Source: a virus
Direction: 5' to 3' (one strand)
DNA length: 43,333 nt
Virus record (IMG/VR): IMGVR_UViG_3300022837_000002
The notes beneath the pieces were generated by a model. The model ran no database searches and had not been told where the DNA came from. It saw only the letters and a program-made list of their open reading frames with translations. Position numbers and translations under genes: made by a program. Below, one piece after another: positions 2,748-42,455 of the stretch; within the stretch, counting starts at the first letter, position 1; every line of letters starts with the position of its first letter.

Positions 2748-2946
2748 AAAACCCCTCCCATTTATCCCAACTCAACTTTACACACACACGGGAGACCATT
2801 TTTTTTTACAAAAAATTTTTTTACCCATACCCAATTATAACACAATCATAACCCCATATAAAACCAAACCCCTCTCAAACCATTTAAAGCCACATCTATA
2901 CAACAGCTAATACAACCCAAAACCCCAAATTAACACTACTCCGTGT

Positions 2947-2986
2947 GCGGGTGATACGCACTAACACCCGTCCCCTCTTTTTTCGG
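2947..2986 (+). terminator. Possible intrinsic terminator downstream of terL
   Basis: Stem cgggtg 2948-2953 pairs with cacccg 2965-2970, followed by tcccctctttttt. The T tract is interrupted and the loop is 11 nt. Confidence 0.4.
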
Positions 2987-3495
2987 CTTACCTACCACCT
3001 TTACCCGTTGAAAATTACGTTGAACTAATCAAAGCGAACAGTACTATACGCTACTAAATGCCGATACAGTAGAATAAAAGACTTTTTAGCGTAGTAACGA
3101 ATAAACAAAAGTGCCCCTATTCAATTTAAACGATATTATACTATACTAGTTTACATAATCATATTTATACGACTATTAACCACAGTAAGCAAAAAGCGAA
3201 TAAGAATACAAGCCAGTATATACAGCATATAGCGCTAAATATGCGCATTAAAGCACTTTAAAGCGTCTTTTTACTGCTCTTATGTCCGCCCAAAATTAAT
3301 GAAGTAGAAGACACAAAGCACTCTTACAAATAACTAATGAATAACACACCTTTAAAAGGTAGTAAATGAATAATGGTGCTGATCTTTTTTTTTTACTTGT
3401 AGTAGTTAGTTAGTGTTATGTATGTAAGAGATGTTGTAAGAAACAACCGCCAGCGCTTGTTAAAGATATGTTTTTATATTTTTTATTGTAAAGAC

Positions 3496-3524
3496 TTGAC
3501 AACTACAAATAGTTGTTTTATATT
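3496..3524 (+). promoter_or_regulatory. Near-consensus sigma70 promoter TTGACA-N17-TATATT for the ArdC/RadC operon. Its spacer contains motif copy acaactac aaat agttgtt (3499-3517).
   Basis: -35 at 3496-3501, exactly 17 nt of spacer, -10 at 3519-3524, about 75 nt upstream of the ATG at 3599. Confidence 0.6.
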
Positions 3525-3574
3525 GCTCCTAGTTGCTTAAATAAAGCAGCCCAAAAAACACCAAACAAGGCTTA

Positions 3575-3597
3575 ACCAGCCAAAAACAAGAGCTAAA
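3575..3597 (+). promoter_or_regulatory. 23-nt leader repeat accagccaaaaacaagagctaaa, copy 1, immediately 5' of the ArdC start
   Basis: Identical 23-mer at 4578-4600. The flanking about 55 nt are also similar. Confidence 0.6.
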
Positions 3598-3598
3598 C

Positions 3599-4525
3599 AT
3601 GAAAAAATCTAACTACATAAAAAAAGACTATTACCAAACTATTACAGACAAGCTTATAAATGCAATCGAAAAAGCGGACGCTAATAATTGGGTAATGCCA
3701 TGGACGGGCGCAACGGGAAACCCGACGCGTTCAACGGGTGAATACTACAGGGGAGTAAATCATTTAGTACTAATGATCGAAGCAGAAGAAAAAGGTTTCT
3801 CTAATCCTAATTGGTTCACATTCAAGCAAGCAAAAGATTTAGGAGCGCAAGTAAAGAAAGGGGAAAAAGGTTCTCCAGTAGTGTATTATAAGTCTTTGAA
3901 AATTGACAGCGACGGAAAACCCGGGACAGTTGATGCGAAAGGCAACTATGTAAATAAAGAAGGTCAGTATACTATTCCACTATTAAAGGGATATACAGTA
4001 TTTAACGCAGATCAAATAGAAAATCTACCTGCGAAGTATGAAGTAAAGCCACCAGTTTTGAACGAAATTGAGCGAGACGCAAAAGCTGAAAAGCTAATAA
4101 GCGCAACGGGTGCAAAGATAACCCACAAAGTAGGAAGCAGAGCATACTACTCACCGAGCGAAGACTGTATAACCTTACCGATGGCAGAGCAGTTCAAGAC
4201 AAAAGAAGGCTATTATAGCACGTTGTTTCATGAGTTAATCCATTGGACTAAAGGCGACGAAAGAACGGGTAGAACAAAAAAATCAGGTGCTCAGGCGTAC
4301 GCATTTGAAGAGCTAGTAGCCGAAATAGGAACGTCTTTTATATGTAATAAACTGCAAATAAGCAGTAAAGAGCAATTAAAGCAAAATGCAAGCTATTTAA
4401 AATCTTGGTTACAACATCTTAAGAACGATAATAAATTCATTTTTAAAGCAGCAGCAGCAGCATCAGCAGCAGCCGAATTTATTTACAGCACAGAAATATC
4501 TATAAAAGAAACTGTAGCAGCCTAA
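3599..4525 (+). CDS. ardC: ArdC-like antirestriction protein: ArdC-N ssDNA-binding domain plus a zincin metallopeptidase (MPTase-PolyVal type)
   Basis: Motifs MPWTGATGNPTRSTGEYYRGVNHLVL and WFTFKQAKDLGAQVKKGEKG are ArdC-N-like. Motifs FHELIHWT (HExxH) and EELVAEIG are protease-like. Confidence 0.8.
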   Translation: MKKSNYIKKDYYQTITDKLINAIEKADANNWVMPWTGATGNPTRSTGEYYRGVNHLVLMIEAEEKGFSNPNWFTFKQAKDLGAQVKKGEKGSPVVYYKSLKIDSDGKPGTVDAKGNYVNKEGQYTIPLLKGYTVFNADQIENLPAKYEVKPPVLNEIERDAKAEKLISATGAKITHKVGSRAYYSPSEDCITLPMAEQFKTKEGYYSTLFHELIHWTKGDERTGRTKKSGAQAYAFEELVAEIGTSFICNKLQISSKEQLKQNASYLKSWLQHLKNDNKFIFKAAAAASAAAEFIYSTEISIKETVAA

Positions 4526-4536
4526 ATTCAATAAAT

Positions 4537-4555
4537 AGGGCTGAGAAGCAGCCCT
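4537..4555 (+). other. Perfect 7-bp hairpin agggctg-agaag-cagccct between ardC and the radC-like gene, with no T-run
   Basis: Read directly. It sits just 5' of the repeated leader. Confidence 0.5.
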
Positions 4556-4577
4556 ATAAACACCAAACAACGGCCTC

Positions 4578-4600
4578 ACCAGCCAAAAACAAGAGCTAAA
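4578..4600 (+). promoter_or_regulatory. 23-nt leader repeat, copy 2, immediately 5' of the RadC-like start
   Basis: Identical to 3575-3597. Confidence 0.6.
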
Positions 4601-4604
4601 AAAA

Positions 4605-5096
4605 ATGGATTTATTCAACCAGCTAAACGAGCTAAACGACCGAGCTTTACCAGCTTACAAACTGCCGAAAATAAAAGTAAGCTTTGCAAGAGAAGAAAAT
4701 AAAGTAGCTAAAAAGTTTTCTAGTTCACGTGAAGCAGCATCAATAGCGCGCGCATATTTAAAAGAATTAGGAACTCTTCAAATGCAAGAGAGTTTTTTAA
4801 TAATGCCGACGGATAGTAAATTAAAACCGTTGGGTATAATTGAAGTATCAAGAGGGTCTATAAATGCAACGCTTGTTGATATAAGAATAGTACTAGGTCT
4901 TTGCTTAGTATGTAATGCCGTGGGGTTTATCGCATTTCACAACCACCCGAGCGGTAATTTGTCGGCTAGTACAGAAGATAAGAATCTTACAAAAAATCTA
5001 GATAAGGCAAGTAAAATTATGGATATAAAGCTAGTTGATCATATAATCGTGACGGAAGCAGGCCACACTTCATTTAAAGACGAAGGTTTATTCTAA
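4605..5096 (+). CDS. radC: RadC-like JAB/MPN-domain protein
   Basis: 163 aa with the JAMM signature HNHPSGNLSASTEDKNLT (HxHPxG...S..D). Confidence 0.8.
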   Translation: MDLFNQLNELNDRALPAYKLPKIKVSFAREENKVAKKFSSSREAASIARAYLKELGTLQMQESFLIMPTDSKLKPLGIIEVSRGSINATLVDIRIVLGLCLVCNAVGFIAFHNHPSGNLSASTEDKNLTKNLDKASKIMDIKLVDHIIVTEAGHTSFKDEGLF

Positions 5097-5395
5097 TGAG
5101 TAAAGAAATAGGATTAACTATACTAAAACAGCTAGGGGGCAACCGCTTTCTGGCTATGACGGGCGCGAAAGGTTTAAACGTACAAGATAATGGCTTTGCG
5201 TTTAGACTGCCTAGAAACGCTAAAGACGGCATCAATTACGTTCAAATTTCGCTGAACGGGTTAGACCTTTACGATCTTGAGTTCAAGTCAATATGGAGAG
5301 GTAGAATAAAAGTCGTAAAAAGCTTCACAGACATTTACGACGATCAGCTAAAAGAGCTATTCACAGAAACAACGGGCTTAAATACAAGCTTATAA
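5096..5395 (+). CDS. hypothetical protein (99 aa), translationally coupled to the radC-like gene
   Basis: Its ATG overlaps the upstream stop (TAATG). No motif recognised. Confidence 0.55.
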   Translation: MSKEIGLTILKQLGGNRFLAMTGAKGLNVQDNGFAFRLPRNAKDGINYVQISLNGLDLYDLEFKSIWRGRIKVVKSFTDIYDDQLKELFTETTGLNTSL

Positions 5396-5423
5396 ACAAA
5401 ATCAGGGATAAAGAGGTAAAAAA

Positions 5424-5633
5424 ATGAGTACTAAACCGACTATATATAATTTTGGTGTATATGTTACTAATTACGCCAACCCCAACCCCACCCCCTCAAT
5501 AGTAGCTAAGGTAGTAAAAATGGGGGATGCTAATATAATAGCTTTCGCACTAACGAAAGCCGTAATAACTTCTCCTGTAACGTACAGCGTTAAACCCTTG
5601 TGTAACTCTAGGGTAATGGCAAAACAAAAGTAA
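5424..5633 (+). CDS. hypothetical protein (69 aa)
   Basis: An aaagagg Shine-Dalgarno lies 8 nt upstream of the ATG. Preferred over the antisense ORF 5471..5665. Confidence 0.45.
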   Translation: MSTKPTIYNFGVYVTNYANPNPTPSIVAKVVKMGDANIIAFALTKAVITSPVTYSVKPLCNSRVMAKQK

Positions 5634-5740
5634 ATGCTGACGTTTAGTATATGGTGAGTAGCCAACCACTAACTGAGCTACGAAGAACAAATGTTTAATC
5701 GGCTATTCACTATATTTTGTGTTAGCATTAGTTAATTATT

Positions 5741-6121
5741 ATGAAAAAGATACTATTAAATTTCGCAGACTATTCAGAAGCTTTGGAATGGAGTGAAAAA
5801 AAAGCAAAGAACTACAAATCAATGAATGATTTTTACACTTCCGATGAATATAAATCAGCATATCCATTGATTCGTAAAATGTATGAGGTAGAGCAAACTA
5901 ATTTTGCAAAAAAAGCCAAGTCAGAACTAAAAAAATCAGGTCTTAAAATATCAGATAAAGTAGTATATTATTTTGTAAGCCCGTTTTTTAATGTTACAAA
6001 TTATTCAGGAAATATTATTGAACGAAATGAAATACCGTATGTAAAATTAGATTTAGGGCAAAAAACAATGTCAGGTAAAAAATCTGTTAGGTGGCATAAG
6101 GGATTCGTGAAGTCTAATTAA
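5741..6121 (+). CDS. hypothetical protein (126 aa)
   Basis: ORF in the co-directional accessory arm. Confidence 0.5.
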   Translation: MKKILLNFADYSEALEWSEKKAKNYKSMNDFYTSDEYKSAYPLIRKMYEVEQTNFAKKAKSELKKSGLKISDKVVYYFVSPFFNVTNYSGNIIERNEIPYVKLDLGQKTMSGKKSVRWHKGFVKSN

Positions 6122-6212
6122 TGCAAAAAAAGAAGTAACCGAACTAACAAAGAAAATTAAATTAGCTCAAACGCTTTGGGCTTAATACAAAACACCAAAC
6201 CAAACCAAACCA

Positions 6213-6452
6213 ATGAACACAATTACAATTCCCGACACGTTAGAAGGCATTAACATAAATATTTATACTAATGCTTTGGAGGTTTACGAAGGTCGTAAAC
6301 TTTTAGGTAGGTTACACACTCACAAACCGAACGTAGTGGCTGAGATAGTTAGACTAGGATGCGCCCAAAGGCACATGACGTACACAGCGACAACATTCCC
6401 GCAAAAGTGCGCTATTCCACCAGCGCCCAAAGGGCTATTTAAGTTTTGGTAA
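6213..6452 (+). CDS. hypothetical protein (79 aa)
   Basis: ORF preceded by the leader acaccaaaccaaaccaaaccaATG. Confidence 0.45.
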   Translation: MNTITIPDTLEGININIYTNALEVYEGRKLLGRLHTHKPNVVAEIVRLGCAQRHMTYTATTFPQKCAIPPAPKGLFKFW

Positions 6453-6486
6453 AAAAAAAGCCCCTTAAGAATGATTAAAAGGGGCT
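6451..6486 (-). terminator. Intrinsic terminator for the minus-strand lipoprotein transcript
   Basis: Stem agcccctt 6459-6466 pairs with aaggggct 6479-6486. On the minus strand it is followed by a T-run, the complement of the A-run at 6451-6458. Confidence 0.6.
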
Positions 6487-6593
6487 ATAAGCTGCTTATT
6501 CAGCAGTATAATTATAACATAATGAACGAGTATAACTATTCATTCATTAAGTAGCAATAAGAAATTCTAACAGCTCTTGTTAGATGTTTGGAA

Positions 6594-6626
6594 AGCTCCC
6601 TGTTGGTTTCAGGGGGCTATTTTTTT
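6594..6626 (+). terminator. Intrinsic terminator for the plus-strand accessory operon
   Basis: Stem agctccctg pairs with cagggggct with one mismatch, followed by attttttt. Confidence 0.5.
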
Positions 6627-7059
6627 ATCTATTATCAAAAGCTCTTTCACAAGTAGAATACAAATTCAATACTTCTTCTTCAAGACGCTCATTCACTAAA
6701 ACAATATGGTGACTATCAACAGAAGCTACGTTGAAAGTTGTTCTACCAATTTGTAATAAAGTATCACTTAAGACTCTTCTTAAGATACCCGTTTCTGTTA
6801 ATATGACTGAGAAGTCTCTCATATCAAAACATGGCCCATCATAAACCAAAGCTTGATAAGAAAATTCAAGCTCAAAAAATGTGTACTCATAAACAGGACT
6901 GTATTCTCTTCTATGTAAGCTTTCTTGAAATCCACCGCTCGAATACCAATTTTTGGTAAATAAAATATCAGCTACGGTTAACGGCATTGGCTGATCATTT
7001 GATGTACTGCAAGAACTAACCAACAATATCAAAGAAATGAGAAGTAGTAGTTTTTTCAT
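6625..7059 (-). CDS. predicted lipoprotein (moron next to attP/int)
   Basis: N-terminus MKKLLLLISLILLVSSCSTS is a signal peptide with lipobox V-S-S-C. Opposite orientation to its neighbours, with its own terminator. Confidence 0.7.
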   Translation of the reverse strand: MKKLLLLISLILLVSSCSTSNDQPMPLTVADILFTKNWYSSGGFQESLHRREYSPVYEYTFFELEFSYQALVYDGPCFDMRDFSVILTETGILRRVLSDTLLQIGRTTFNVASVDSHHIVLVNERLEEEVLNLYSTCERAFDNR

Positions 7060-7110: not shown

Positions 7111-7353
7111 GTACCCCTTAAGTACCCATGTACCCCTTAAGTACCCCATTTAACGATTATAACGCAATTCTTTAACAACAAGGTGTTAGTTATTTTTTTA
7201 ATAAAGTCTAAAAAATGATGGTAGAGCCTATTTTTAGGCTAAATTACAGAATAATAGGAAAATACTGTTTGTTTGTATTTCTTAAGTCTAACGTATTGCA
7301 ATGCAATACTTTGTAAGTTTTATAAATAATACAAGTACCCCAATAGTACCCCC
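7111..7353 (+). repeat. attP-like field. Six same-orientation GTACCC(C) repeats in two clusters flank about 190 bp that contain the palindrome gtattgca-a-tgcaatac (7293-7309).
   Basis: Repeat starts at 7111, 7122, 7130 and 7141, then 7335 and 7346. The field abuts the 3' end of the integrase gene. Confidence 0.55.
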
Positions 7354-7363
7354 GATGTTGTTT

Positions 7364-8521
7364 TTACCCAATTCTGCTGACAACATCTTGTAATCTTGTT
7401 GCCAACACTTTGGCGTAAACTTCTGTTTGAGCTATGGATTCATGACCCATAAATTCAGATAATTCTTTTAACGGCATACCCGCATTAACCCAATGCGTAG
7501 CGCCCCCATGTCTAAGCACATGAAGACCCATTCTACCGCTCATTATTGATAAATCTGTAAGAGCTTCTTTTAATTTGTCGTGAAGTCTAGCATACTTTAA
7601 TGAATTATTTAATACACCCGTATGTGAATATTTTAAAAGAAGCTCAAGGGCAGGCTTTGCACTTTTTGAAATGGGAACAACTCGTACTTTCATGCCTTTG
7701 CCATAGAGTTTAATGGTATTTGATGTAAAATCAATATGAGACGCTTTAAGTCTTTTAAATTCAATATATCTCATACACTGAAAGAACATAAGCTCGTATA
7801 TAGCGTTTAAAATAGACCCGTAGGTCTCTCTATTGTACGGCAAGCTGTCCACGTAATAAAAATAAGTAGGTTCGGCCAGTCTCTTGTTTATGTAGCTAAA
7901 AACTTGTTGCAGTTGAGAGTATGTTAAATATTTGATTAAGCGTGTCTGATTTTCGCTATAACGCTTATTCATTTTATAATTTGGCTTAATCAACAACTGC
8001 AATTTATGTGCTGTTCTGTGTTCTATATAAGCTAAAAAACGGCTAATAAGAGATTTATACGCCGCGCAATAGCTCCTACTTTTACCAGTAGTGTAGTCTT
8101 CTAAAAGAGTGGTCCATAAATTATCATCTGTCGCTCTAGCGCTAAACTCTGATAAATTATTGTCTCTAACAAAAGCTTTTAATTTGTTTGAGTAACCTAA
8201 ATAGGTTAATTGCATTACTTGATCTCGCATTTCTGCTAAATAATCATTTAGCAAACTTATAATAGTTAAACCATCTTCATGCTTAACATACTCAGCGCCT
8301 TTAGAACCCGGATTGTCTGCAAAATCTCTCCAGGACTGTTTGGTGAGCTTCCAGGCTCCGCTATCGTAAGCTTTATTCATATCATGCTCTAGTTGTAATA
8401 GCGCACGTTTACTATATAAATTAACCTCAACGCTATGCTTTCTTTGGCGCCCCATGCGCTTAAACTTAATTTCGTAGCGATTACCGTTTTTTTTAAACAG
8501 AGCCATCCTTATCACCATCAA
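7364..8521 (-). CDS. int: tyrosine recombinase / phage integrase
   Basis: C-terminal catalytic pattern HVLRHGGATHW...GHESIAQTEVYAKV (HxxR...H...Y). The start may instead be at 8518 or 8506. Confidence 0.9.
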   Translation of the reverse strand: MMVIRMALFKKNGNRYEIKFKRMGRQRKHSVEVNLYSKRALLQLEHDMNKAYDSGAWKLTKQSWRDFADNPGSKGAEYVKHEDGLTIISLLNDYLAEMRDQVMQLTYLGYSNKLKAFVRDNNLSEFSARATDDNLWTTLLEDYTTGKSRSYCAAYKSLISRFLAYIEHRTAHKLQLLIKPNYKMNKRYSENQTRLIKYLTYSQLQQVFSYINKRLAEPTYFYYVDSLPYNRETYGSILNAIYELMFFQCMRYIEFKRLKASHIDFTSNTIKLYGKGMKVRVVPISKSAKPALELLLKYSHTGVLNNSLKYARLHDKLKEALTDLSIMSGRMGLHVLRHGGATHWVNAGMPLKELSEFMGHESIAQTEVYAKVLATRLQDVVSRIG

Positions 8522-8801: not shown

Positions 8802-8990
8802 TAGCCGTCCTAAAGATTTGTTTATTTATTGTTGTTTTTAACAACACATAATATAAAGTAAAAAACAAATCTTTACCATCAAAACAGCATAAAACAATTT
8901 TTCGCTAAAGAAAAAAACTACTTAGTGTTGTTATTTCTATTTAATGTCTTTACATTAGATTTTTGAAAATATCAATACATCCCTAAATAA
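8802..8990. promoter_or_regulatory. Divergent switch region with nested inverted repeats and motif copy aaaactac ttag tgttgtt (8914-8932)
   Basis: aaagatttgttt 8812-8823 pairs with aaacaaatcttt 8863-8874 (12 of 12). An inner hairpin gttgtt-ttt-aacaac lies at 8831-8845. Confidence 0.5.
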
Positions 8991-9374
8991 ATGTCTCTAT
9001 CCAAATTAATGAAGCAAAGTACGGGCAATAATGCTCGCTTTGTTAAAATGTTCGGAAAAGCCAAGCTAATCCGTTTCATAGCACGTAAATCATTAGCTCA
9101 ATTCAAGCTTCATTTACCATTTGTTGAAAACCCGTATCAATGGCTTAGCAACCGAATTGATATAAAAAAATTCATACAAAAATATGAAGCAGAATTTTCT
9201 GAATTACCTTTGCAGGAGTTTAAAAAAAACGAACTACTTAGCTTACTGGATGCCTTTTTGCATTGTGCCGTTGATGAAATGATAGAGGCAGCACTTGATG
9301 GTAAACCTGAACTAGGTTTAAAAAAAAAGGAGGGCGACCAAGCCCTCCTAACACCAAACCAAAAACAGAGCTAA
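8991..9374 (+). CDS. hypothetical protein (127 aa), first rightward early gene
   Basis: ORF only. No motif recognised. Confidence 0.5.
   Translation: MSLSKLMKQSTGNNARFVKMFGKAKLIRFIARKSLAQFKLHLPFVENPYQWLSNRIDIKKFIQKYEAEFSELPLQEFKKNELLSLLDAFLHCAVDEMIEAALDGKPELGLKKKEGDQALLTPNQKQS
9320..9349 (-). terminator. Textbook intrinsic terminator on the minus strand, antisense inside the 3' end of CDS 8991..9374
   Basis: Stem aggagggc 9328-9335 pairs with gccctcct 9342-9349 (8 of 8, GC-rich) with a 6-nt loop. The minus strand then reads 8 Ts, the complement of 9320-9327. Confidence 0.55.
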
Positions 9375-9405
9375 CTACTATTGGTTAGCTCACAATATAA
9401 GAAAA

Positions 9406-9801
9406 ATGGAATCAGAACTTCTACAACGAATTGAAACGAAGCTGGATAAGCTCCTAGAAATCACAAAAGCGAACGAGCTTACCGATAAAACACCGCTTTT
9501 CAGTAATTACTTGAAGGCTATTGGAACAACTAAAGAGCAAGTGAATCACCCCGAAGCAAAGGGTATGCCTAATATGATGACTTTAAGCCTAGCGGCTGAG
9601 TTTCTTTATGAGCGGCACGGCAAAATAATGAGCAGCGCCAAGTGGATGGCAAAAATTCGTTACGCTACAAGAACGGGTAAAATTGTAAGCTACAATGAAG
9701 AAGGGCAAGTAAAAAAAGACAAGAGGGGAACAAGATCGCTCTTAAAAACATCAGACATTTTGAAATGGCTTAAAAAAAGCCTGCCTGAAATCAACGCTTG
9801 A
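9406..9801 (+). CDS. hypothetical protein, possibly an excisionase/AlpA-like (HTH_17-type) DNA-binding protein
   Basis: Pattern MTLSLAAEFLYERHG...IVSYNEEG...LLKTSDILKWLKK resembles MerR-superfamily excisionase helices. Confidence 0.35.
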   Translation: MESELLQRIETKLDKLLEITKANELTDKTPLFSNYLKAIGTTKEQVNHPEAKGMPNMMTLSLAAEFLYERHGKIMSSAKWMAKIRYATRTGKIVSYNEEGQVKKDKRGTRSLLKTSDILKWLKKSLPEINA

Positions 9802-10751
9802 TGCAAAATCTAATAAATTTAGAAGGCCACCAAGCCCCACAATATTTAGCCAAAGAATACATCCAGGCTTACAAACGCAATGCAAAGCTGTATAGGATGG
9901 ATAGTTCTGGTATGCGCTTTTATTATCGCTTTGATAGAAATAATGAAGTGAGATTTTACGGCTCCGTAACAAGTGTAAAAAAACAAGTTACTGGCCTACC
10001 GAGAGCGATTATAGATAAAGAGATCGAAATGGGTAAGATTGCTTTTAACAAGTTCTTAAATGAGCGCTCTAAGCATGGTACATTTTTTCATACTCTAGCT
10101 GCTGAATTAACGATAACAGATCGCTTTGATTTAAAAAAGCTACCAACACTCTATAGAGATTTTATAACCTTAAATGGGCTATCAGAAGCTCAAACAAGTT
10201 ATTGGCCAAACGCTATTGCCAAAGGTTTGCAATCATGGGTTCAGTGTATGCAAGATTATGACATTCAGCCGATAGGCATAGAAGTTCCTTGCTACTCAGA
10301 CAGATTCGGTATTGCAGGCACTATTGACGTCGTTTGCAGTATGTACGATAAACTTTACAGTGAAGCAACACCGCTAGATAAGCGAAAAAGGGTTATTGCC
10401 ATTATAGACTGGAAGTCTGGTAATATCTTTGAAGATTACGCTTTGCAGTTAGAGTTAAATAAAATCACATGGGCTGAAAGCGTTTCATTCGCACCACAAC
10501 CCACGAAACTATTAAACTGGACCTGGAATGATTGGAGAGATAAACCCACATACAATTTAGTGAATCAAACAGAAAACGATTACACCAATGTACTAGGGCA
10601 TTATTTGGCTATTTATCGTGAGACAGGCACACTAAAGCCAAAATCTTTGAAGAAATACAGCGGTATTCTTCATAAAAAAGCAGACATGAGCAAATTCATG
10701 CAAATTACATCAGCCGAACAATTCATCAAACAACAACACCAAACCAAATAA
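9801..10751 (+). CDS. PD-(D/E)XK (RecB/Cas4-like) nuclease
   Basis: Motifs GIAGTIDVV ... IAIIDWKSG ... YALQLELN follow the D...DxK...QxxxY-like order. The ATG at 9801 overlaps the upstream stop (TGATG). The track starts at TTG 9798. Confidence 0.6.
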   Translation: MQNLINLEGHQAPQYLAKEYIQAYKRNAKLYRMDSSGMRFYYRFDRNNEVRFYGSVTSVKKQVTGLPRAIIDKEIEMGKIAFNKFLNERSKHGTFFHTLAAELTITDRFDLKKLPTLYRDFITLNGLSEAQTSYWPNAIAKGLQSWVQCMQDYDIQPIGIEVPCYSDRFGIAGTIDVVCSMYDKLYSEATPLDKRKRVIAIIDWKSGNIFEDYALQLELNKITWAESVSFAPQPTKLLNWTWNDWRDKPTYNLVNQTENDYTNVLGHYLAIYRETGTLKPKSLKKYSGILHKKADMSKFMQITSAEQFIKQQHQTK

Positions 10752-10755
10752 GATC

Positions 10756-11853
10756 ATGAAAGAAACAACAGAAGAAACAACACTCCAAAAAGTTGAAGAA
10801 AACTTAGTAGACGCTGAAAATATAGAGGTACTTCCTTCTATTGAAGAAGCGTTAGCCATAATTAAAGAACCTATCACAGACAAAGTTAAAACAGCGATAG
10901 CACAAGCGCTCAAAACTGAGCTTGTAGAGCTGCAAACAGTCGCGGGGTACAACAAGGCTGACAAAACAGTTAAGAGCTTAGTAAAGCTACTTTCGGGGAT
11001 GGAAAAAGAGCGAAAAAGATTAGTTGATCCTGCTGTCAAGTATCAACGAAGTATCAACGCCGAAGTTAAAACAATCAAAGAACAGTTAGAAAATGCTAGA
11101 GATCATTTAAAAAGCCATTTAAAGCTTATTGATGATGAAAAAGCACGAATTGAACTAGAATTAAAAAAAGAACGCGTATCGTTACTAACAAGTGCGGGAT
11201 TTTCATTCGATGGCTTTCATTATGCAGCAGGCGAAACTATGCTTTCAGCCGAGACCATTACTTCACTTACAGAAGAAGAGTTTAAAGCTGAATATGAGAA
11301 TGGTAAAGTCTTCATTGCAGATTTAGAAGCTAAAAAACAAGCTGAAATAGATGAACGCTTAGCTGAACAAGAAAAACTAGATAAGCAAAAAGCTGAATTA
11401 GATGCTCAATTAGCAAGTTTAGAAAAAGACAAAGAAGAATTAAGGCAATTAAGAGCAGAAAAAGAAAATAGGCTAAAAAAAGAAGGTCCAGGTTTAGAAT
11501 CAATTTCAAGTGGAGTAGATTTATCGAATGACTTTCCTAGCAGCAATGAGCCTATATTCAAACAACCAGTGCCAAGTCAAAATATCGAGCAAGCTAATCA
11601 ATCTGTCATAACTCAAGCTGGTAACTTAAAACCGATGTATGAGCCAGAGACAGAGACAGAGCAATACCCAGATGTAACAGAAGATCAAAATATTAATGAT
11701 GTGAGCGAAATCGAGGATCATTTTCAACAAGGTTTCATTAATTGCAAACAATTAATACTTAAAGAATTTAATTCAGGTATTAAAAAGAACCGCACAGAGT
11801 GGGTAATTTTCATTAGCCATCTTAAACCATCAGTGGCATTTAAAAATGGGTAA
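10756..11853 (+). CDS. coiled-coil protein of unknown function (365 aa)
   Basis: Long K/E-rich heptad-like stretches with an acidic C-terminal half. Lies in the recombination module. Confidence 0.5.
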   Translation: MKETTEETTLQKVEENLVDAENIEVLPSIEEALAIIKEPITDKVKTAIAQALKTELVELQTVAGYNKADKTVKSLVKLLSGMEKERKRLVDPAVKYQRSINAEVKTIKEQLENARDHLKSHLKLIDDEKARIELELKKERVSLLTSAGFSFDGFHYAAGETMLSAETITSLTEEEFKAEYENGKVFIADLEAKKQAEIDERLAEQEKLDKQKAELDAQLASLEKDKEELRQLRAEKENRLKKEGPGLESISSGVDLSNDFPSSNEPIFKQPVPSQNIEQANQSVITQAGNLKPMYEPETETEQYPDVTEDQNINDVSEIEDHFQQGFINCKQLILKEFNSGIKKNRTEWVIFISHLKPSVAFKNG

Positions 11854-12085
11854 TAAAAAAAAGAGTAATCAAAAAGAAGAGCTACTAGCTTATTTGAAAG
11901 AAAACAAAAGTATAACCTACTTTGAAAGTTTTTCTGAGATTGGTATTGCCCGTCTTGCCGCTAGAATTTCGGACTTAAGAGCCGAAGGGCATAACATAGA
12001 AACAATAATGAAAAAAGTTATTTCAAGCCAAACAGGACGTGAACATACTGTAGCTGTTTACTACTACAATGAGGCTAAAGAGTAA
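11846..12085 (+). CDS. small winged-helix/HTH DNA-binding protein
   Basis: GIARLAARISDLRAEGHNIET resembles the RLxxRIxDLRxxGxxI pattern of phage HTH proteins. Confidence 0.4.
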   Translation: MGNKKKSNQKEELLAYLKENKSITYFESFSEIGIARLAARISDLRAEGHNIETIMKKVISSQTGREHTVAVYYYNEAKE

Positions 12086-12512
12086 ACTAACAAGCTTAGC
12101 AAGCTTAAATAGTATGCTTGCTAAGTTTTCTAAAGAAGTGTTCGAACAATTCCCCGAAAAGGGAGATATAATAATTGAAGTTCACCGCGTACCCGCTGAC
12201 GTTACCAACGAAAAAGCTAGAAGATATTACTGGCTACTTTGTAGACTTATAAGAGATTTTCTAGTAGAATCCGGCTATAACAACTTTAGCGTTAATGATG
12301 TTCATGAGCTGAATAAAGATAAACACATGAGCGCTGAGTTCATTGATTATCTGACTATGCAAACCTACAACCAAGCCTCTAGCTCAACACTAGTAGAAGC
12401 TCACGAATGGGCGCCCATTTTTGAAGCAATAAAACTAGAGTGGGCACAAAGGGGCTTAAGCCTTCCCGATAGATATGATAGACAAGAAAAAGGTACTCCA
12501 AACTCTGCATAA
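12069..12512 (+). CDS. hypothetical protein, weakly NinB/Orf-like by size and context
   Basis: 147 aa. ARRYYWLLCRLIRDF is reminiscent of the NinB core. This call is weak. Confidence 0.3.
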   Translation: MRLKSKLTSLASLNSMLAKFSKEVFEQFPEKGDIIIEVHRVPADVTNEKARRYYWLLCRLIRDFLVESGYNNFSVNDVHELNKDKHMSAEFIDYLTMQTYNQASSSTLVEAHEWAPIFEAIKLEWAQRGLSLPDRYDRQEKGTPNSA

Positions 12513-12951
12513 TGAAGCAACCAAAAAAGAGTTACAAACATTTGAAACAGGCTTTTTAATAGAAATAGCAATACATCTGGATAGTCAAGACTACGAAAAA
12601 GCCGCACAGGCTGTATTGTTTATGCGAACCAACTACAGCTTATTATTTCAGTTATCAACCAATTCTACAGATGCTGAAATTGAACAGATGAAACAAAACC
12701 TTCAACAATCAAACGATGATCTAAAAGAAGAAAAACTATCTACTGTACCTAGCATTACCACCAAAATCAAAGCACTTACCTCCTATAAAGCCAACGATAA
12801 AACCGAACAAGATGTACTAAATTTTTGGCGTAATACAAACGCTGAATATGCTGAATACAACTTTACGGGGCTTAGCTCACATTTTTTAATGATGGTTTAT
12901 ATGGCAGGAATGGGCTTTGGTAAAGAACTTCAAAAACACCAAGCCAAATGA
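12475..12951 (+). CDS. hypothetical protein (158 aa)
   Basis: ORF overlapping both neighbours in operon fashion. Confidence 0.5.
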   Translation: MIDKKKVLQTLHNEATKKELQTFETGFLIEIAIHLDSQDYEKAAQAVLFMRTNYSLLFQLSTNSTDAEIEQMKQNLQQSNDDLKEEKLSTVPSITTKIKALTSYKANDKTEQDVLNFWRNTNAEYAEYNFTGLSSHFLMMVYMAGMGFGKELQKHQAK

Positions 12952-14015
12952 AACGACCAACACACTACCAAATTGTAGAACGATCTATCTACTTAGCTGA
13001 TGGAATGGCTCCAAAATGTGCATTAAAAGCAATTTGTGCTATTATTGAGTTTTTGGGCGCCAACTGTGGAAAACTACCATACCAGCGAGCGCTTGCAAGA
13101 TCACAAAATATTCATCTTCGCACCTTACAAAGAGGGTTAGATTGGCTTGTAAATAATGGTCAATTAGCTATCAAAAATAGCCGTTATATAGTGCCTTGTA
13201 TGATCACTATTCCCGCCGAAATGATGACCGAAACCATCATTAAAAGTGACGCACTAGTGACGCACAAACGACGCACTAATGACGCACTAGTGACGCACAA
13301 ACGACGCACTAGTGACGCACTAGTGACGCACTTGCAGAATGGCTATACCTTATATACTAAGAATATTAAAAACTATATAAAAAAAGCTACGTTTCACTTC
13401 GCTTTGGAAGGTTCAGCTGACGCCGAACTAACACACACTAATGCGGCCTTCGGCCTTGCTGAAAACAAGTTGAGTTTGGCCGTAGGAATGAGCCTAGACG
13501 AAGAACCGATTTATGCAGAGAATCAGGTTCTAGCTTCTAGCCAAAATTCTGAGCCAAGCAAAGCGCCCATTAACAGCCTTAAGTTTTCTAGTGTTGAACG
13601 TAACCCTAATCCACCGCTTAAAGCGTCTTCTAAACCCTCTCAAATTTCACGTTTAAGCGACGATAATTTGATAAACGATAAGATACAAGCCTCACCCCCT
13701 TCCGAGCCAGTCAGCGAAGAGCCAGCTAGCAAAAAACAACAATACGTAGCGAAACCAAAGGACGTAGAAATGGTTACAGCTTACGTTTTAGATTTCTTGA
13801 CCAAACAAATCAAATCTAAAAATGTTAGGCATAATCGTTACAAAGCGTCAAATAAAAGTGATTTAAGCGCTATATCAGAAGATTTCTTCGATTACTACGA
13901 ATCATGCGGCTGGCGGGTTGGTTCAAAACCCATGAAAAATTGGCGATCTGCTATGAATCGCTGGTTAATAACTACCAAAGACACAAATCCAATTTCCTCC
14001 AAAAATGCTAATTGA
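12948..14015 (+). CDS. replication initiator (lambda O-like organisation: N-terminal winged helix, internal iterons, disordered linker, C-terminal domain)
   Basis: HTH-like SQNIHLRTLQRGLDWLVNNGQL. Iterons lie inside the gene. A P/S-rich linker follows. The gene overlaps the helicase gene start. Confidence 0.65.
   Translation: MKRPTHYQIVERSIYLADGMAPKCALKAICAIIEFLGANCGKLPYQRALARSQNIHLRTLQRGLDWLVNNGQLAIKNSRYIVPCMITIPAEMMTETIIKSDALVTHKRRTNDALVTHKRRTSDALVTHLQNGYTLYTKNIKNYIKKATFHFALEGSADAELTHTNAAFGLAENKLSLAVGMSLDEEPIYAENQVLASSQNSEPSKAPINSLKFSSVERNPNPPLKASSKPSQISRLSDDNLINDKIQASPPSEPVSEEPASKKQQYVAKPKDVEMVTAYVLDFLTKQIKSKNVRHNRYKASNKSDLSAISEDFFDYYESCGWRVGSKPMKNWRSAMNRWLITTKDTNPISSKNAN
13248..13331 (+). 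repeat. Origin iterons: 8 copies of GACGCAC at exact 11-bp phasing
   Basis: Copies start at 13248, 13259, 13270, 13281, 13292, 13303, 13314 and 13325. They translate as DALVTHKRRT repeats. Confidence 0.8.
13349..13386. other. AT-rich tract adjacent to the iterons (candidate DNA unwinding element)
   Basis: The tract is cttatatactaagaatattaaaaactatataaaaaaag, with about 5 G/C in 38 nt. Confidence 0.5.
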
Positions 14016-15369
14016 TTTAAAAATAGAAAAAGCTATTTGTGGAAGTTTATTAACGGCGCCTTCGCAATTTTCTGCAATCGTCAAGGACACGCTAACCACT
14101 GATCATTTTGTGAATGATACTACAAAAATCATTTTTGAGGGAATTGATTACTGTTTTAATCAAAATAATTTACCCAATGTTTTTGACGTTGAAAATTATC
14201 TAAGCCAACGACACCCCAACAAGTTAAAAGAATTTGGTGGAGAGCGTTTTTTAATAAGTTTAGCGCAATATTCTACGCTAAACGAGCAGCAATTCAAATC
14301 ATGGGTTGAGCGCTTAATTGAGCTGTATGGATTACGCAAAATTCATTCAACATGTAGCAGCGTAACTACGCAAATCCAAGACGAAGATACAAAGCTTGAG
14401 AATGTTTTGGTTCAGCTTGAAATGCTATCACAGCATGTACTAGAAAGTGGCGCTGTTGGTTCAGTTTCACTCACAGCGGAACAAATTACTCAGCGAGACC
14501 TCACAAAAAAAGAGCCTGAACGATTGTTTCATAACAACACCGCTTTAGATAATATCTACCAAAATTGCGGGTCCAGAAGAGGACAATATGAAATAGTGAT
14601 GGGCATAACAGGACACGGTAAATCCCATTTTGCCATGCTCAGAGCAGCAGGTTATTTAGCAAATGGCTATAAAGTTCTTTGGATTCAACGCGAAGACACC
14701 GACAGCTCTAGCGTAAACAGAGCTAATTCTTATCTAGCAAACATAAGTCCAGACCCTAAGATGCTATTCAAAAATTTATATATTTCTGATAGGCTAAGTT
14801 ATATAGCTGATATTAAAAGAGAAGCTAGATTATTGTATTCAAAGGGTTGTCTTGATGTGCTAATTGTTGATTATGTACAGCGTGTCAAAGCAATAGGATT
14901 TAAAGGCAACGATAGACGTATGGTTGTAGATCACATATCTACTGAACTAGCTGATTTAGCCATAGAATTAAATATATTAGTTATAGCAGTTTCTCAACTA
15001 TCTAGGCGAAAAAACGATAACGGTTGGCGCTTAAAACCCCGTATTGATGATATGAAAGAATCCTCGCAGTTAGAACAAGATGCCTACATGGTTACGTCTA
15101 CCTTTTATCCAGGTAGGGTAGATGATTTAATTAAGCCCAATAATCTTGTGTTATGGTATGATGATAGTTTAAAGCCAAAAAACACCTTACAAATTGAAAT
15201 ACTTAAACACCGACATGGCCTGCCAAACGTGTACAAAAGTTTAGCTAATTTCAATCATCTAGGAATACTTCAATTTCAAGAAGCGCAAGCATCAAGTGCA
15301 AGGCATTTAGACGAAACAAAAGAAAAACCATTCTATTTAGTAGGAGACGATGATGAACTACCATATTAG
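14005..15369 (+). CDS. dnaB: DnaB-family replicative helicase
   Basis: N-terminal EKAICGSLL, Walker A GITGHGKSHF, Walker B LIVDYVQ, and AVSQLSRR. It ends in the acidic tip GDDDELPY. Confidence 0.88.
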   Translation: MLIDLKIEKAICGSLLTAPSQFSAIVKDTLTTDHFVNDTTKIIFEGIDYCFNQNNLPNVFDVENYLSQRHPNKLKEFGGERFLISLAQYSTLNEQQFKSWVERLIELYGLRKIHSTCSSVTTQIQDEDTKLENVLVQLEMLSQHVLESGAVGSVSLTAEQITQRDLTKKEPERLFHNNTALDNIYQNCGSRRGQYEIVMGITGHGKSHFAMLRAAGYLANGYKVLWIQREDTDSSSVNRANSYLANISPDPKMLFKNLYISDRLSYIADIKREARLLYSKGCLDVLIVDYVQRVKAIGFKGNDRRMVVDHISTELADLAIELNILVIAVSQLSRRKNDNGWRLKPRIDDMKESSQLEQDAYMVTSTFYPGRVDDLIKPNNLVLWYDDSLKPKNTLQIEILKHRHGLPNVYKSLANFNHLGILQFQEAQASSARHLDETKEKPFYLVGDDDELPY

Positions 15370-15736
15370 CGCAAATGAAACTGAGGAAATTTACACCGAT
15401 TGTTTGCGGAAGTTTAAAAGGTCTTTAAAAAAAGAGTGGACAAACGAGCAAAAAAGGTATTTCTTTTCTGATTTAATAAGTAAAATTATATATGAACAAT
15501 TATGTGAGCGATATTTCTTGGCAATCAAAAAAGAAGAAGCTAAGAATCTGCGTAACATGATAGATGATTTTTTGCAGTTAGCTAAGTTAAATGAGTATAA
15601 ACATTTTGTGTTATGCCAAAACTTACGATTAAATGTTATTGAGCAATTTGAAAAAAAGGTTATGCTAGTTAGAGCAAGCAAGGCTAACGGCACAGCCAAA
15701 CAAGTAGCCACCCATGTAAAAGGTTTCTTTAAATAG
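15350..15736 (+). CDS. hypothetical protein (128 aa)
   Basis: ORF co-directional and coupled with the helicase gene. Preferred over antisense 15391..15804. Confidence 0.5.
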   Translation: MMNYHISANETEEIYTDCLRKFKRSLKKEWTNEQKRYFFSDLISKIIYEQLCERYFLAIKKEEAKNLRNMIDDFLQLAKLNEYKHFVLCQNLRLNVIEQFEKKVMLVRASKANGTAKQVATHVKGFFK

Positions 15737-16058: not shown

Positions 16059-19000
16059 TTAATCTAAGCTTATTTCAACTTTACTTTGATTAACCCCGCC
16101 AAGAGCTACACGCTGTTTAGCTTGCTCGTTAGCTAGTCTTGAAATTTGCCTAACACGCTTATCAATCTGTTCATTAGTCATAGTAATTAAATTAGGCTTA
16201 TCAAGTATTATATCTCTGCGTATCTGTCTTCCTGAGTAGTAAATAAAATTGTAATATTGGTTCTCATTCATTACTCGACTCTGCCCTATCAAATCAATGT
16301 AAGACACGCTATTCGGATTAGGCGTAGGAATAAATAGGTTCTTATTTGTTAGAAAGCTAAATACAGGATGCTCTTTTTGAGTGCTGTAAAACCTGCCTAG
16401 CAAACCTTGAGCAGCGCTCCAATCATTGCGTATTGGCTCACCTAAGCGATTTATAACTGGATGCCTATCATTCACCGCAAAGGCTGATGGCGTAGATGCT
16501 GCTATCAATTCCTGAACCGTATCTTTAGTGTAAATTTTTGGGTCAAATATCTGGTTAACACTTCTAAATAAACTAGGCGTTGCTAATCGAACAGGCGTTG
16601 CTAATAGGTCTTTGACAATATTAACTTTTGAAGCGCCCTCTCTACTCACATTTTCTACCAACCTTGCAGCTCCACTAAGAAACGACATATTTAGCATAGT
16701 CTGAGGTATAAGTTTAAAAGCATAAAACAGTCTTGATTGCAAATCTTTATCATCAAGTTCTTTATAACGAACGGCATCTGAGTAATTACCTACAAGTGCT
16801 AAAAGTAAACCAAGTGGACTATCTTTATAGCTAAAATAAGTTTTCCCCATTTGGACAGTATATTCTTTCCAACCCGTTTCACCTAATTGTCTAGCTTTTT
16901 TATAATCAATAGGCCCTCTACCATGTATTCTAAACGATGGCTCATTATCTTCTGGATCATCAGTAAAAGCTATAGCAGCTAACAAAGAGAAAGCAATGGT
17001 TCCTGCCATGTTTTTCATTAAGATAATCTTATGCGCATCATCTAATGAATCATTAACATTGCGACGCTCAACATCGTTTTTAGCGTTCATATAGCGCCAT
17101 AAACCAATAACAGGAACATAATTAACTTGTTCGTTTAACACGTTTGCTACAATCGTAGTGAAAGGAATTGCTCCCAACCTAATTACCGTTGACGCAACTC
17201 TACTATTGGTTTTTTTATCAATTAAATTAAACCCCTGATTTATTCCCAATGCAATAGAACCCATCACCCCCTCTGGTGTTTGATTATATGTTGATGTTAA
17301 ACCAAATTTTACCGCATCTTCTTGCAAACTTTGATCTCTATTACGCTCTATCTGGTCATGCACAAAATGTTTGTAATCCCTAGTACCAGGTTCTAAACCT
17401 GCATTTGACGCTTCAATGTTAGCCTGCTCTCGGAAAGGTTCACCTAAAAGCTCTGAAAACAGTTTTTGCGCATCATCCCCTCGTAAACCTGATTTTTGAA
17501 CGGTTTTAGTAGCGGTGTAGTAAAAACGCATTTCCTCAGCACCTTTAAAAAACAACATATCCGAAGCGGCCATTACCCTACGAGTATATTTAAAGAAAGA
17601 AAGGGCAAATTGCAGTTTACTATCGGAGGTAGCTAACATTTCTAAAGTATCGCCACCCATTTGATCAATCTTCTGTAAACGAGTACCCGTTACAACACCT
17701 GTTTTTAGCACCTTTTCCGCTTCTGGAATACCTTTAATAAACCCTTTAAGAAGGCCTATCATTGGCGTATAACCCGATTTATTAAAAGGATTCATAGCCC
17801 ATAATGAGAAACCATTCAATAAAACATTAGCAAACGTAGAGCCAAAATTTACCACTTGCGTAGGAATACCACTAAGCATATTACTATAGGCAACACTTGT
17901 AGAAATATCCCACCAGCTTATCCCTTTTTGTTGAGCTATAAAACTCATTAGCTCAACCATTTTTTGATCTTTTGCCGAACTATCTACCATTAAGTTAACT
18001 TCTTTAGCCATTTGATCAATTTTGGCTAATGCTTTAGGGTCTGGCGACATTTCTAAAAATCTAGCTAATGAATCTCGTAAATCTGCCTGAGAAAGTGCGC
18101 CCAACCTAGATAAATCCATTAACTCATTAACAAATTTTGAAGCTCTTGTACCACGACTAGCTTTTTCGCCTTTGGTTTTTTTATCCATTTTTTTTAAAAA
18201 GGCTTCAATCTTCTTTTTTCTGGTATCTATAATTTCTTGCTTAAGTGTGGCGTCCACTCGCTCGGCCATTAACTCAGCTTCATTTGTATTCAAACCACCT
18301 TGCTCTACCAACTTTTTAAGTAGCGCCATACGGTTATTGGTATCTACCCCGTAATGATCGGTAATAAGCTCTTTCATTTTCATATCAAGATCAGTAAGCG
18401 CATCACCCATAGCTTTACGGACCAGCTTAACGCTAACTTCTCTATTGTTAAACCCATCAACGAGCGCTAAAGCCTGCTGCTTAACATCCTGTGATAAACT
18501 TTGGTCTTGTTGAATAGTATCGTAAACAGTATCTAAAGCCTCTTGATAACGGTCTGGGTTACGCACTACATCTAATATCATATCTATAGCAGGCCTATTA
18601 CTTTTTTCATTTTTAGTAGTAGGTAACTTAGATCGTATTTCCTGCATTAAAGCATTGGTAAATTCTTGTAGCGGTATGCTAGATGGAGAAGATCCCGCAA
18701 GTTGTTGCATAACGGATTTAGCTATAGCAACACGATAACGCTGCCAAATCCCATCCCCATCTTTTTTATTGTCTCTGTTTGGCTTGGCGCCTGATTCACT
18801 TAATTTCTTTTTTGCTTGGGCTAATTGTCCTTGCAGCCCTGAAAGTTCAAAGTATATTTTATTTATAACATCGTCTAGCTGTCCTAATATTTGTTTCTTT
18901 TGGTCTATTTCAGCTTTAATCCCTTCAATACCGCTGCCTACAGGTCTGCCTTCAAGTTCTTTAATCTGATCGGTTAACGCCTCGATTTGCTTAGTCAAAA

Positions 19001-24795: not shown

Positions 24796-24814
24796 AACAA
24801 CAATATGTAGTTTT
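24796..24814 (-). promoter_or_regulatory. AAAACTAC-N4-YGTWGTT motif copy (minus strand reads aaaactac atat tgttgtt, then ATG)
   Basis: Read as the reverse complement of aacaacaatatgtagtttt. Confidence 0.5.
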
Positions 24815-40301: not shown

Positions 40302-40331
40302 GTTTTATAGAAAATAAAACTATTTCACTTA

Positions 40332-40350
40332 AAAACTACAATGTGTAGTT
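40332..40350 (+). promoter_or_regulatory. AAAACTAC-N4-YGTWGTT motif copy (aaaactac aatg tgtagtt) in the portal/SSB divergent region, followed by tataat at 40351-40356
   Basis: Perfect 8-bp palindrome arms, read directly. Confidence 0.5.
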
Positions 40351-40382
40351 TATAATGTTGACAAAAACTTAAAACAACCATT

Positions 40383-41990: not shown

Positions 41991-42110
41991 TCTAGTGATA
42001 ACAAATAGCGCCTTAGTGGGTTTTGATCGGTTCACTAGGATTACACTTTCATAAAAGCCCCAAAAAGGCTAAACCATCATTAAATCAAAAATGACACCAA
42101 ACCAAAAACC

Positions 42111-42455
42111 ATGATAGTAAAACGTCAAACTGGAATACCTGCAATAACACATAACGATTTTAAAAAGTATTGCAAATTAAAAGGTAAAACAATGAATAAG
42201 GTTTTTAATGATCTGTTAATATACAACATTGGTAATTACGGGCTAAACTACCATCAAATACTAAGTCCAAACCTAAAAGATTCATTATCTAAATTAAGTA
42301 GGCGAGTACCAAATCACATAGATAAAAAGAATTTTTGCGTTTCAACGAATAAGGTAACTGGCAAATTAATTGACGATTGCCTTAAAGACCGTAAAATTCC
42401 CTTCTCGTATTTGATTAGGGCAATCATCTATACAGAAATAAAAATTTACATTTGA
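42111..42455 (+). CDS. hypothetical protein, possibly with a ribbon-helix-helix N-terminus
   Basis: IPAITHNDFKKYCKLKGKTMNKVFNDLL follows a strand-helix-helix-like pattern. This call is weak. Confidence 0.35.
   Translation: MIVKRQTGIPAITHNDFKKYCKLKGKTMNKVFNDLLIYNIGNYGLNYHQILSPNLKDSLSKLSRRVPNHIDKKNFCVSTNKVTGKLIDDCLKDRKIPFSYLIRAIIYTEIKIYI

Follow-up and report, generated by a model that had tools for sequence, protein, structure and literature searches.

ArdC of the conjugative plasmid R388 is required in the recipient cell, counteracts type I HsdRMS restriction, and binds single-stranded DNA (ssDNA) nonspecifically, and its E229A mutant, which is predicted to be protease dead, retains the antirestriction function (PMC7213743). 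The protein is also among the gene families given for plasmid leading regions (supplement of PMC11541004), the genes of which are transcribed from the transferred strand (PMC11541004). RadC-type JAB proteins have been linked to ArdC through fusion proteins described by Iyer et al. in 2011 and 2017 (PMC3239186, PMC5512222), and the RadC fused to an ArdC module was predicted to be a nucleic-acid-processing enzyme (PMC3239186). Here, we analyzed a viral DNA of 43,333 nucleotides (IMG/VR record IMGVR_UViG_3300022837_000002; "the window" is this whole stretch), in which three adjacent plus-strand genes encode an ArdC, a short RadC, and a 99-amino-acid protein, orf99. A first-pass annotation made from the sequence alone had proposed that the three products may act together, as a candidate anti-defense island, on incoming or replicating DNA or on host defense proteins. 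We consider it about an even chance that the region at 3456 to 6618 is a mosaic accessory arm, in which independently mobile genes for entry or the onset of replication stand behind one operator-controlled promoter, rather than a dedicated three-protein machine. The main lead is orf99, a member of a huge unnamed family common to phage accessory arms and to the regions of conjugative plasmids proximal to the origin of transfer (oriT).

The three open reading frames (ORFs) were confirmed at 3599 to 4525 (ardC), 4605 to 5096 (radC), and 5096 to 5395 (orf99). That they form one complex or pathway could be argued from their adjacency on one strand behind one promoter, from the overlap of the radC stop with the orf99 start (TAATG, 5094 to 5098), from the RadC-ArdC fusions found elsewhere (PMC3239186), and from the finding that the trio is intact in six near-identical metagenomic relatives (L005 to L010). 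However, these six relatives are one lineage, with 95 to 100% amino acid identity, and radC is missing from the 70%-identical sister phage L011, whose ArdC and orf99 are 71% and 70% identical to those of the window. This phage keeps the promoter, ardC, orf99, orf79, the gene on the lipoprotein side, and int, while three unrelated small ORFs lie at the radC position and the orf79 homologue lies directly 3' of orf99. The orf99 contexts that we compared came from plasmids (IncX, IncI2, Pantoea, Edwardsiella, and a contig of a Salmonella plasmid), from the phages L011, RcSpartan, Pm86, and pT24, from three phage-like contigs of uncultured origin, and from a region of Ensifer that resembles a prophage. 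In 11 independent contexts outside the lineage of this phage, RadC was never found within 5 to 8 kb of orf99, and ArdC was found only in L011. No orf99 was present at 10 ArdC loci of bacteria or at three loci with a short RadC, the phage records with ArdC (57 records) and those with RadC (40 records) had none in common, and orf99 homologues usually stood alone among unrelated small ORFs. With this distribution, a joint action of the three proteins on incoming DNA or host defense proteins is quite improbable.

The ArdC-RadC-orf99 trio is thus a lineage-specific mosaic and not a system, and the proposed island contains at least one recognized anti-defense gene, ardC. The combination had also been thought uncharacterized, which holds for orf99, a protein with no Pfam or NCBIfam model, but not for the association of ArdC with RadC, which is real and already published as gene fusions (PMC3239186, PMC5512222), nor for the presence of ArdC and RadC in phages, which was known. 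When the six near-identical relatives were compared with the window, ArdC and orf79 were 100% identical and RadC, orf99, and orf126 were 95 to 96% identical, an uneven divergence that suggests recent recombination within the arm.

The gene junctions fit an exchange of cassettes. Translational coupling had been proposed for all three genes; it is supported between radC and orf99 by their overlap but not between ardC and radC, which are separated by 79 nucleotides that hold a hairpin and a repeated leader. In this spacer (4538 to 4600, plus strand), the hairpin GGGCTGAGAAGCAGCCC at 4538 to 4554 has no T-run, a consensus scan for intrinsic terminators did not detect it as one, and it is followed by a CA-rich repeat (copy 2, 4553 to 4600). 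The 5' leader of ardC (3533 to 3598, plus strand) is built in the same way, with a hairpin at 3533 to 3549 and then an unstructured CA-rich repeat (copy 1, 3550 to 3597), and its RNA fold has a z score of -3.7. Between the two copies, 22 nucleotides are identical (3576 to 3597 and 4579 to 4600), with 0 such matches expected by chance, and the intergenic regions of L011 show the same punctuation of a hairpin followed by a CA-rich leader. This module may serve as a translation leader and as a recombination joint for gene cassettes. The mosaic nature of the arm is therefore argued from the absence of radC in L011, the lack of co-occurrence elsewhere, the hairpin and CA-rich modules at the junctions, and the 22-nucleotide duplicate. 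The CA-rich leaders (ACACCAAAC...) have no Shine-Dalgarno sequence, and further ones occur at 6189 to 6212, 10729 to 10757, and 42087 to 42115. We also considered the repeated 48-nucleotide leader as a structured regulatory RNA but found no support for this, since folding was limited to a generic hairpin at the 5' end, covariation was lacking in the small GGC/GCC stem, and many other genes have a similar CA-rich leader.

The product of ardC (plus strand; 308 amino acids) consists of an ssDNA-binding ArdC-N domain and a zincin metallopeptidase domain, as the first-pass annotation had assigned them. The Pfam matches were to ArdcN (PF08401; E value, 2.5e-34; profile positions 1 to 123 of 123) and MPTase-PolyVal (PF18818; 2.4e-43), and the match to PHROG 7245, "anti-restriction protein," had an E value of 2e-80. 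The protein is collinear over its full length with R388 ArdC (PDB 6I89/6SNA; phmmer E value, 5.6e-64; query 8 to 299 against chain 6 to 288), and its motifs are intact, with HELIH at 211 (H211-E212-x2-H215) and FEELVAE at 236. The metal ligands H201, H205, and E229 of R388 ArdC correspond to H211, H215, and E239 of the phage protein, and E202 and E228 correspond to E212 and E238. Given this close full-length homology, the phage ArdC is inferred to be an antirestriction protein like that of R388. Because the E229A mutant of the plasmid protein is still active, mutation of HExxH would be a weak test of antirestriction.

ArdC homologues were present in 57 phage records, and PHROG 7245 covers phage proteins. 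Two T7-like marine phages, HTVC011P (Pelagibacter; 559 to 1545) and CRP-804 (Roseobacter; 1 to 909), carry the homologue upstream of their RNA polymerase gene; in T7, that position is taken by gene 0.3, an antirestriction gene of the early region, which encodes the DNA mimic Ocr. The Ocr-like position of these homologues is consistent with a role in the entry phase. The CRP-804 homologue bears the annotation "MarR family transcriptional regulator," apparently in error.

Several of the ArdC homologues in phage records are annotated as DNA primase, which bears on another explanation, namely, that these genes serve the DNA metabolism of the phage, with ArdC as a single-stranded-DNA-binding-protein-like or primase-associated handler of ssDNA and with RadC as a nuclease for repair or recombination. 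The nonspecific ssDNA binding of ArdC-N (PMC7213743) would agree with this, as would the same MPTase domain at the C terminus of the TraC1 primase (PMC5512222), the published links of RadC to HhH, primase, and DinG helicase domains together with its prediction as a nuclease (PMC3239186), and a RuvC-like resolvase (545 to 985; Pfam and PHROG scans) in the same plus-strand arm. However, the primase annotations are name transfers, the sole characterized close homologue is an antirestriction protein, radC is dispensable in L011, and the accessory arm is apart from the replication module (8991 to 15736), which holds DnaB and the iterons. We regard a role in DNA metabolism as unlikely.

The second gene, radC (plus strand), encodes a 163-amino-acid RadC-type JAB/JAMM protein of the short kind seen in mobile elements, without the N-terminal HhH domain. 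The assignment made in the first-pass annotation stood up in the Pfam search (PF04002; E value, 1.1e-32; 112.9 bits against a cutoff of 22.1; profile positions 5 to 121 of 121) and in the match to PDB 2QLC (3.1e-11), which was aligned at the HNHPSG motif. The JAMM motif is complete, with E63 in QESF and H112-N-H114-PSGNLSA-S122-TE-D125 (H112-x-H114-x7-S122-x2-D125). The protein did not reach the NCBIfam cutoffs (NF000642/TIGR00608; 99.4 against 180 bits and 84.2 against 133.85 bits) and matched only the C-terminal half of the profiles. Its nearest homologues are 144 to 166 amino acids long and, like the phage protein, lack PF20582, the N-terminal HhH domain present in the 228-amino-acid proteins among the matches. 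As judged from these comparisons, the phage RadC is the short JAB-only form and not a long-form RadC, and in this it presumably resembles the Escherichia coli cryptic-prophage paralogues YeeS, YkfG, and YfjY.

The third gene, orf99 (plus strand; 99 amino acids), matched PHROG 9437, a family with no function assigned, over its full length (E value, 1.3e-27). It had no match in Pfam, NCBIfam, or PADLOC at an E value of 0.01 or lower, and sequence and profile searches of the PDB returned nothing at an E value of 10 or lower. The AlphaFold2 model (predicted local distance difference test score [pLDDT], 88.7) has the topology aa-b5-a, and as modeled, the fold has no solved relative. The PP7 coat protein and Pur-alpha, which came up as fold relatives in the Foldseek search of the PDB, were dismissed as noise (best E value, 0.19; template modeling scores of 0.39 or lower), and a Foldseek search of BFVD gave uncharacterized viral proteins only. 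Seven residues (Q12, G14, T22, G23, D57, Y59, and T93) were invariant in 41 sequences of the family, and orf99 carries the conserved motifs QLGG...MTGAK...DxY...TG. The invariant residues, with Q12, D57, Y59, and the two TG motifs among them, hint at a defined binding site.

The family is very large. A profile of 41 homologues matched at least 7,175 representative clusters at 50% identity (E value of 0.001 or lower) among 1.84 billion proteins. By tblastn, homologues were found in 63 phage records, including lytic, temperate, and jumbo phages, with hosts ranging from Pelagibacter to Pseudomonas and Tenacibaculum, and they were also present in 894 plasmids, 747 of which were predicted to be conjugative. 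Four plasmid backbones carry the homologue upstream of the relaxosome genes and in the same orientation as these, which are ddp1/MobP1 in IncX, mobC in IncI2, traM in the Pantoea plasmid, and a relaxosome protein gene in the Edwardsiella plasmid; in IncX and in the Pantoea plasmid, the homologue is followed by further small hypothetical ORFs, and the series that it opens stops immediately short of the relaxosome genes. The IncX and IncI2 homologues are WP_001181903 and WP_000427403, respectively. This position and orientation are as expected for leading-region genes (PMC11541004). Accession numbers for orf99 on plasmids had no match in the literature, nor did the four that were compared with the supplementary entries of Samuel et al. 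2024 (PMC11541004), and IncX, IncI2, and R6K plasmids were not mentioned in an early-conjugation transcriptome study. In the uncultured phages L012 and L014, the arm that diverges from the terminase begins with the homologue, and in Pasteurella phage Pm86, the homologue lies in a two-gene insert on the opposite strand. Taken together, the findings on orf99 point to a module that stands alone and that many mobile elements use at establishment. The recurrence of the gene by the plasmid relaxosome and in the terminase-diverging arm of two uncultured phages makes it a testable candidate for a common establishment or anti-defense factor.

About half of the best 150 representatives of the family were longer than orf99, with the domain mostly as a C-terminal module and sometimes in two or three tandem copies. 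Among the family proteins P0090 to P0228, many are lysine-rich multidomain proteins (180 to 887 amino acids) that end in the domain, and it follows lysine-rich regions or DUF3008, DUF5661, or KTSC. All 78 of the longer members that were scanned matched PHROG 9437, and in the Pfam and PHROG scans of these 78, the only partners were DUF3008, DUF5661, KTSC, and unnamed PHROGs, from which no function could be transferred. The longer proteins may be polyproteins or oligomer mimics, or they may be artifacts of gene calling. ESVNE-like linkers recur in them. Single-sequence AlphaFold2 prediction of the tandem-domain protein P0091, made with regard to a pseudodimer, reached a pLDDT of only 38. For the family as a whole, we tentatively put forward, as a possibility short of an even chance, that orf99 represents a new and very widespread family of small entry-phase effectors with a fold unseen in solved structures, which would neutralize a common host defense or stress response. 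Phages would use such an effector in their early or accessory arms, and conjugative plasmids (IncX, IncI2, and others) would use it beside their origins of transfer; it would act as a stand-alone protein or as the C-terminal module of larger phage proteins.

A near-consensus promoter with an operator-like motif in its spacer had been noted upstream of ardC, and we found it again in a conserved block at 3456 to 3524 (plus strand). It consists of the -35 element TTGACA (3496 to 3501), the palindrome AACTACAAATAGTTGTT (3501 to 3517), which occupies the spacer, and the -10 element TATATT (3519 to 3524). With a 17-nucleotide spacer, it matches the sigma-70 consensus at 11 of 12 positions, which is the best match between 2700 and 9100, and it lies 75 nucleotides upstream of ardC. 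The block is identical to that of L011 at 59 of 69 positions, compared with 69% identity for the ardC coding sequence and 57 to 61% for the flanks, and the palindrome in the promoter spacer is perfect in L011. The ardC promoter is credible because of its position upstream of ardC, its conservation in L011, and the palindrome in its context and not because of the match score. That the promoter and its operator are conserved speaks for an expression of the arm that is regulated.

The palindrome (AACTAC-N5-GTAGTT) occurs in five copies, all of them intergenic and at operon heads (1103 to 1119, 3501 to 3517, 8916 to 8932, 24796 to 24812, and 40334 to 40350), and these precede, in this order, terL, ardC, the replication arm, a gene of the structural operon, and the arm after the portal gene. 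Two copies are exact, compared with 0.03 expected, and the others have one mismatch. A second site (40329 to 40356) has the same layout as the ardC promoter, with a -35-like TTAAAA and a perfect -10 TATAAT, 16 nucleotides apart, around the palindrome. The palindrome is probably the operator of a single phage regulator.

The operon had been described as one of three genes. The single promoter stands, but the first terminator-like site downstream of it on the plus strand is a hairpin with a T-run at 6594 to 6618 (9-bp stem with 6 GC pairs; tail, ATTTTTTTAT), so that the unit probably comprises six genes, ardC, radC, orf99, orf69 (5424 to 5633), orf126 (5741 to 6121), and orf79 (6213 to 6452). 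The last three are on the same strand as the upstream genes with short gaps, and none of them had a family match in Pfam, PHROG, or NCBIfam. Between orf69 and orf126 lies a conserved long-hairpin element of about 95 nucleotides (5635 to 5731). Its 28-nucleotide core, TTTAATCGGCTATTCACTATATTTTGTG, was found exactly in 13 IMG/VR contigs, Cellulophaga phage phi18:3 included, and where the downstream flank was present, the ATG of an unrelated gene followed the element after about 10 to 25 nucleotides. The 3' arm of the element is invariant, there is one compensatory pair only, and there was no Rfam match; the element may be a structured RNA, or it may serve as a promoter or a leader.

The arm lies between the packaging gene (TerL, 1242 to 2747; PHROG 38; E value, 1.9e-76) and attP, as the first-pass annotation had it: a repeat scan found arm-type direct repeats (GTACCCCTTAAGTACCC) on the attP side at 7111, 7130, and 7335, and the tyrosine integrase gene (int; Pfam Phage_integrase, 7.6e-19; PHROG 1) follows at 7364 to 8521 on the minus strand. 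This moron position next to int and attP, together with a lipoprotein gene at 6625 to 7059 (minus strand), would suit a module for lysogenic conversion or superinfection exclusion that is expressed from the prophage against other invading elements, and polyvalent-protein domains have been proposed to act against competing elements too (PMC5512222). However, the six arm proteins and the neighboring lipoprotein matched no PADLOC model at an E value of 0.01 or lower, ArdC and orf99 have relatives in plasmids and in phages that are strictly lytic, and the palindrome also stands at four other operon heads, those of terL and a structural gene included, which suggests that the arm is controlled together with lytic functions. 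Such a module is very improbable. The predicted lipoprotein itself (144 amino acids; MKKLLLLISLILLVSSC...), the gene of which has the accessory arm on one side and the attP arm repeats (7111 to 7351) on the other, had no family match in the NCBIfam and PADLOC scans and is a candidate for a typical moron.

In the mosaic arm as we picture it, a phage regulator bound to the palindrome would hold the arm off in the lysogen, and the host RNA polymerase would transcribe the arm once the phage has injected its DNA or has been induced. ArdC would then act as R388 ArdC does in the recipient, using its DNA-binding domain to neutralize restriction of type I (HsdRMS type) with no need for proteolysis. Alongside ArdC, RadC would process nucleic acid or else a substrate linked to a nucleotide, as suggested by the published RadC-ArdC fusions, and orf99 would act alone, as a small establishment or anti-defense factor that binds a host protein or ligand.

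Several points weigh against the mosaic entry arm and the proposed role of orf99. A mechanism derived from conjugation may not transfer to ArdC in a double-stranded DNA (dsDNA) phage, which does not enter as ssDNA. For RadC, PMC3239186 and PMC5512222 give no biochemical activity for any RadC-type JAB protein. Since terL and a gene of the structural operon have the palindrome in front of them as well, it is no specific mark of the early class, and the early timing of the arm is itself inferred. The sigma-70 match was rejected as statistical evidence because 78% of Markov-simulated genomes hold at least one match of 11 of 12 positions. Flavobacteriia promoters differ from the sigma-70 consensus, and with several hints pointing to a Flavobacteriia host, the palindrome may be of more weight than the TTGACA/TATATT match. 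Of the 894 plasmids with orf99 homologues, most are from Escherichia, Salmonella, and Shigella, and few backbones were typed (IncX and IncI2), so that the independent plasmid lineages are probably far fewer than 894. Finally, the leading-side location of the homologues was deduced from where the relaxosome genes lie and not from a mapping of the nick sites, and there are two oriTs in IncX plasmids (PMC3402527).

The window represents the whole genome of a temperate phage, about 43.2 kb in size and with a G+C content of 38.6%. The first 127 bp are repeated exactly at the end, which indicates a circularly assembled genome, and TerL and the tyrosine integrase in the window, a P22-type portal protein and DnaB in the near-identical relatives, and 11-nucleotide iterons identify a temperate tailed phage. 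Near-identical relatives (95 to 100% amino acid identity) were found in several JGI, IMG/VR, and Logan assemblies. There was no close cultured phage, the identity of TerL to any phage record being about 29% or lower, and the species-representative genomes contained no matching prophage, only ArdC relatives of 36 to 44% identity. Shine-Dalgarno sequences preceded 13 of 41 ORFs, against a background of 7%, which is ambiguous for identification of the host. At the DNA level, the window is linked to a cultured phage only by a 92-nucleotide noncoding element that it has in common with Cellulophaga phage phi18:3, which gives a weak hint of a Flavobacteriia host. The window has no tRNA genes and no Rfam matches.

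Other features of the genome lie outside the arm. About nine tandem 11-nucleotide iterons (AGTGACGCACT; 13234 to 13343) are located within a 355-amino-acid ORF (12948 to 14015) just upstream of the DnaB-like gene, and this array is probably the replication origin. The structural arm holds a single ORF of 2,289 amino acids (16059 to 22928, minus strand) and a minus-strand ORF of 387 amino acids (25177 to 26340) with six tandem repeats of 129 nucleotides (43 amino acids) that are 76 to 87% identical (25237 to 26181). The 850 nucleotides after terL (2748 to 3598) contain no ORF of 40 amino acids or more except a 40-amino-acid ATG ORF at 3418 to 3540; this stretch has a C/A-rich 5' end and, near 2947 to 2985, a weak hairpin with a T-run behind it, it had no Rfam match, and a pac or cos site and a small RNA are candidates for it.

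ArdC and RadC add little to what is known, since a plasmid-type antirestriction protein in temperate phages is already annotated in databases. The orf99 family, which has no Pfam or NCBIfam model and no structure, includes members on IncX and IncI2 plasmids of Escherichia and Salmonella, and such plasmids spread mcr-1, blaNDM, and qnrS. If the proposed role is correct, orf99 would tie the early regions of phages to the leading regions of plasmids through another common tool, and it would provide a small target that bears on how resistance plasmids spread.

Compared with the known systems, the phage ArdC has the same two-domain architecture as ArdC of R388/pSa (IncW), but it belongs to a dsDNA temperate phage, while R388 is a conjugative plasmid that enters as ssDNA. 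The likeness to T7 gene 0.3 is one of position only, as Ocr has no sequence or fold relation to ArdC, and gene 0.3 lies at the genome end, whereas ardC of this phage lies in an accessory arm. The phage RadC has the RadC domain and the intact JAMM motif of the RadC-type JAB proteins of mobile elements; the published RadC-ArdC fusions are single proteins, while radC of this phage is a separate gene adjoining the ArdC module. The PHROG 9437 entry gives no function and does not contain the plasmid distribution, the fusions, or the predicted fold found here for the orf99 family. Although the phage arm has no oriT, no T-strand, and no ssDNA promoter, it resembles the islands of plasmid leading regions (Samuel et al. 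2024, PMC11541004) in that both combine an antirestriction gene with small ORFs of no known function, and the phage arm, too, may be expressed upon entry.

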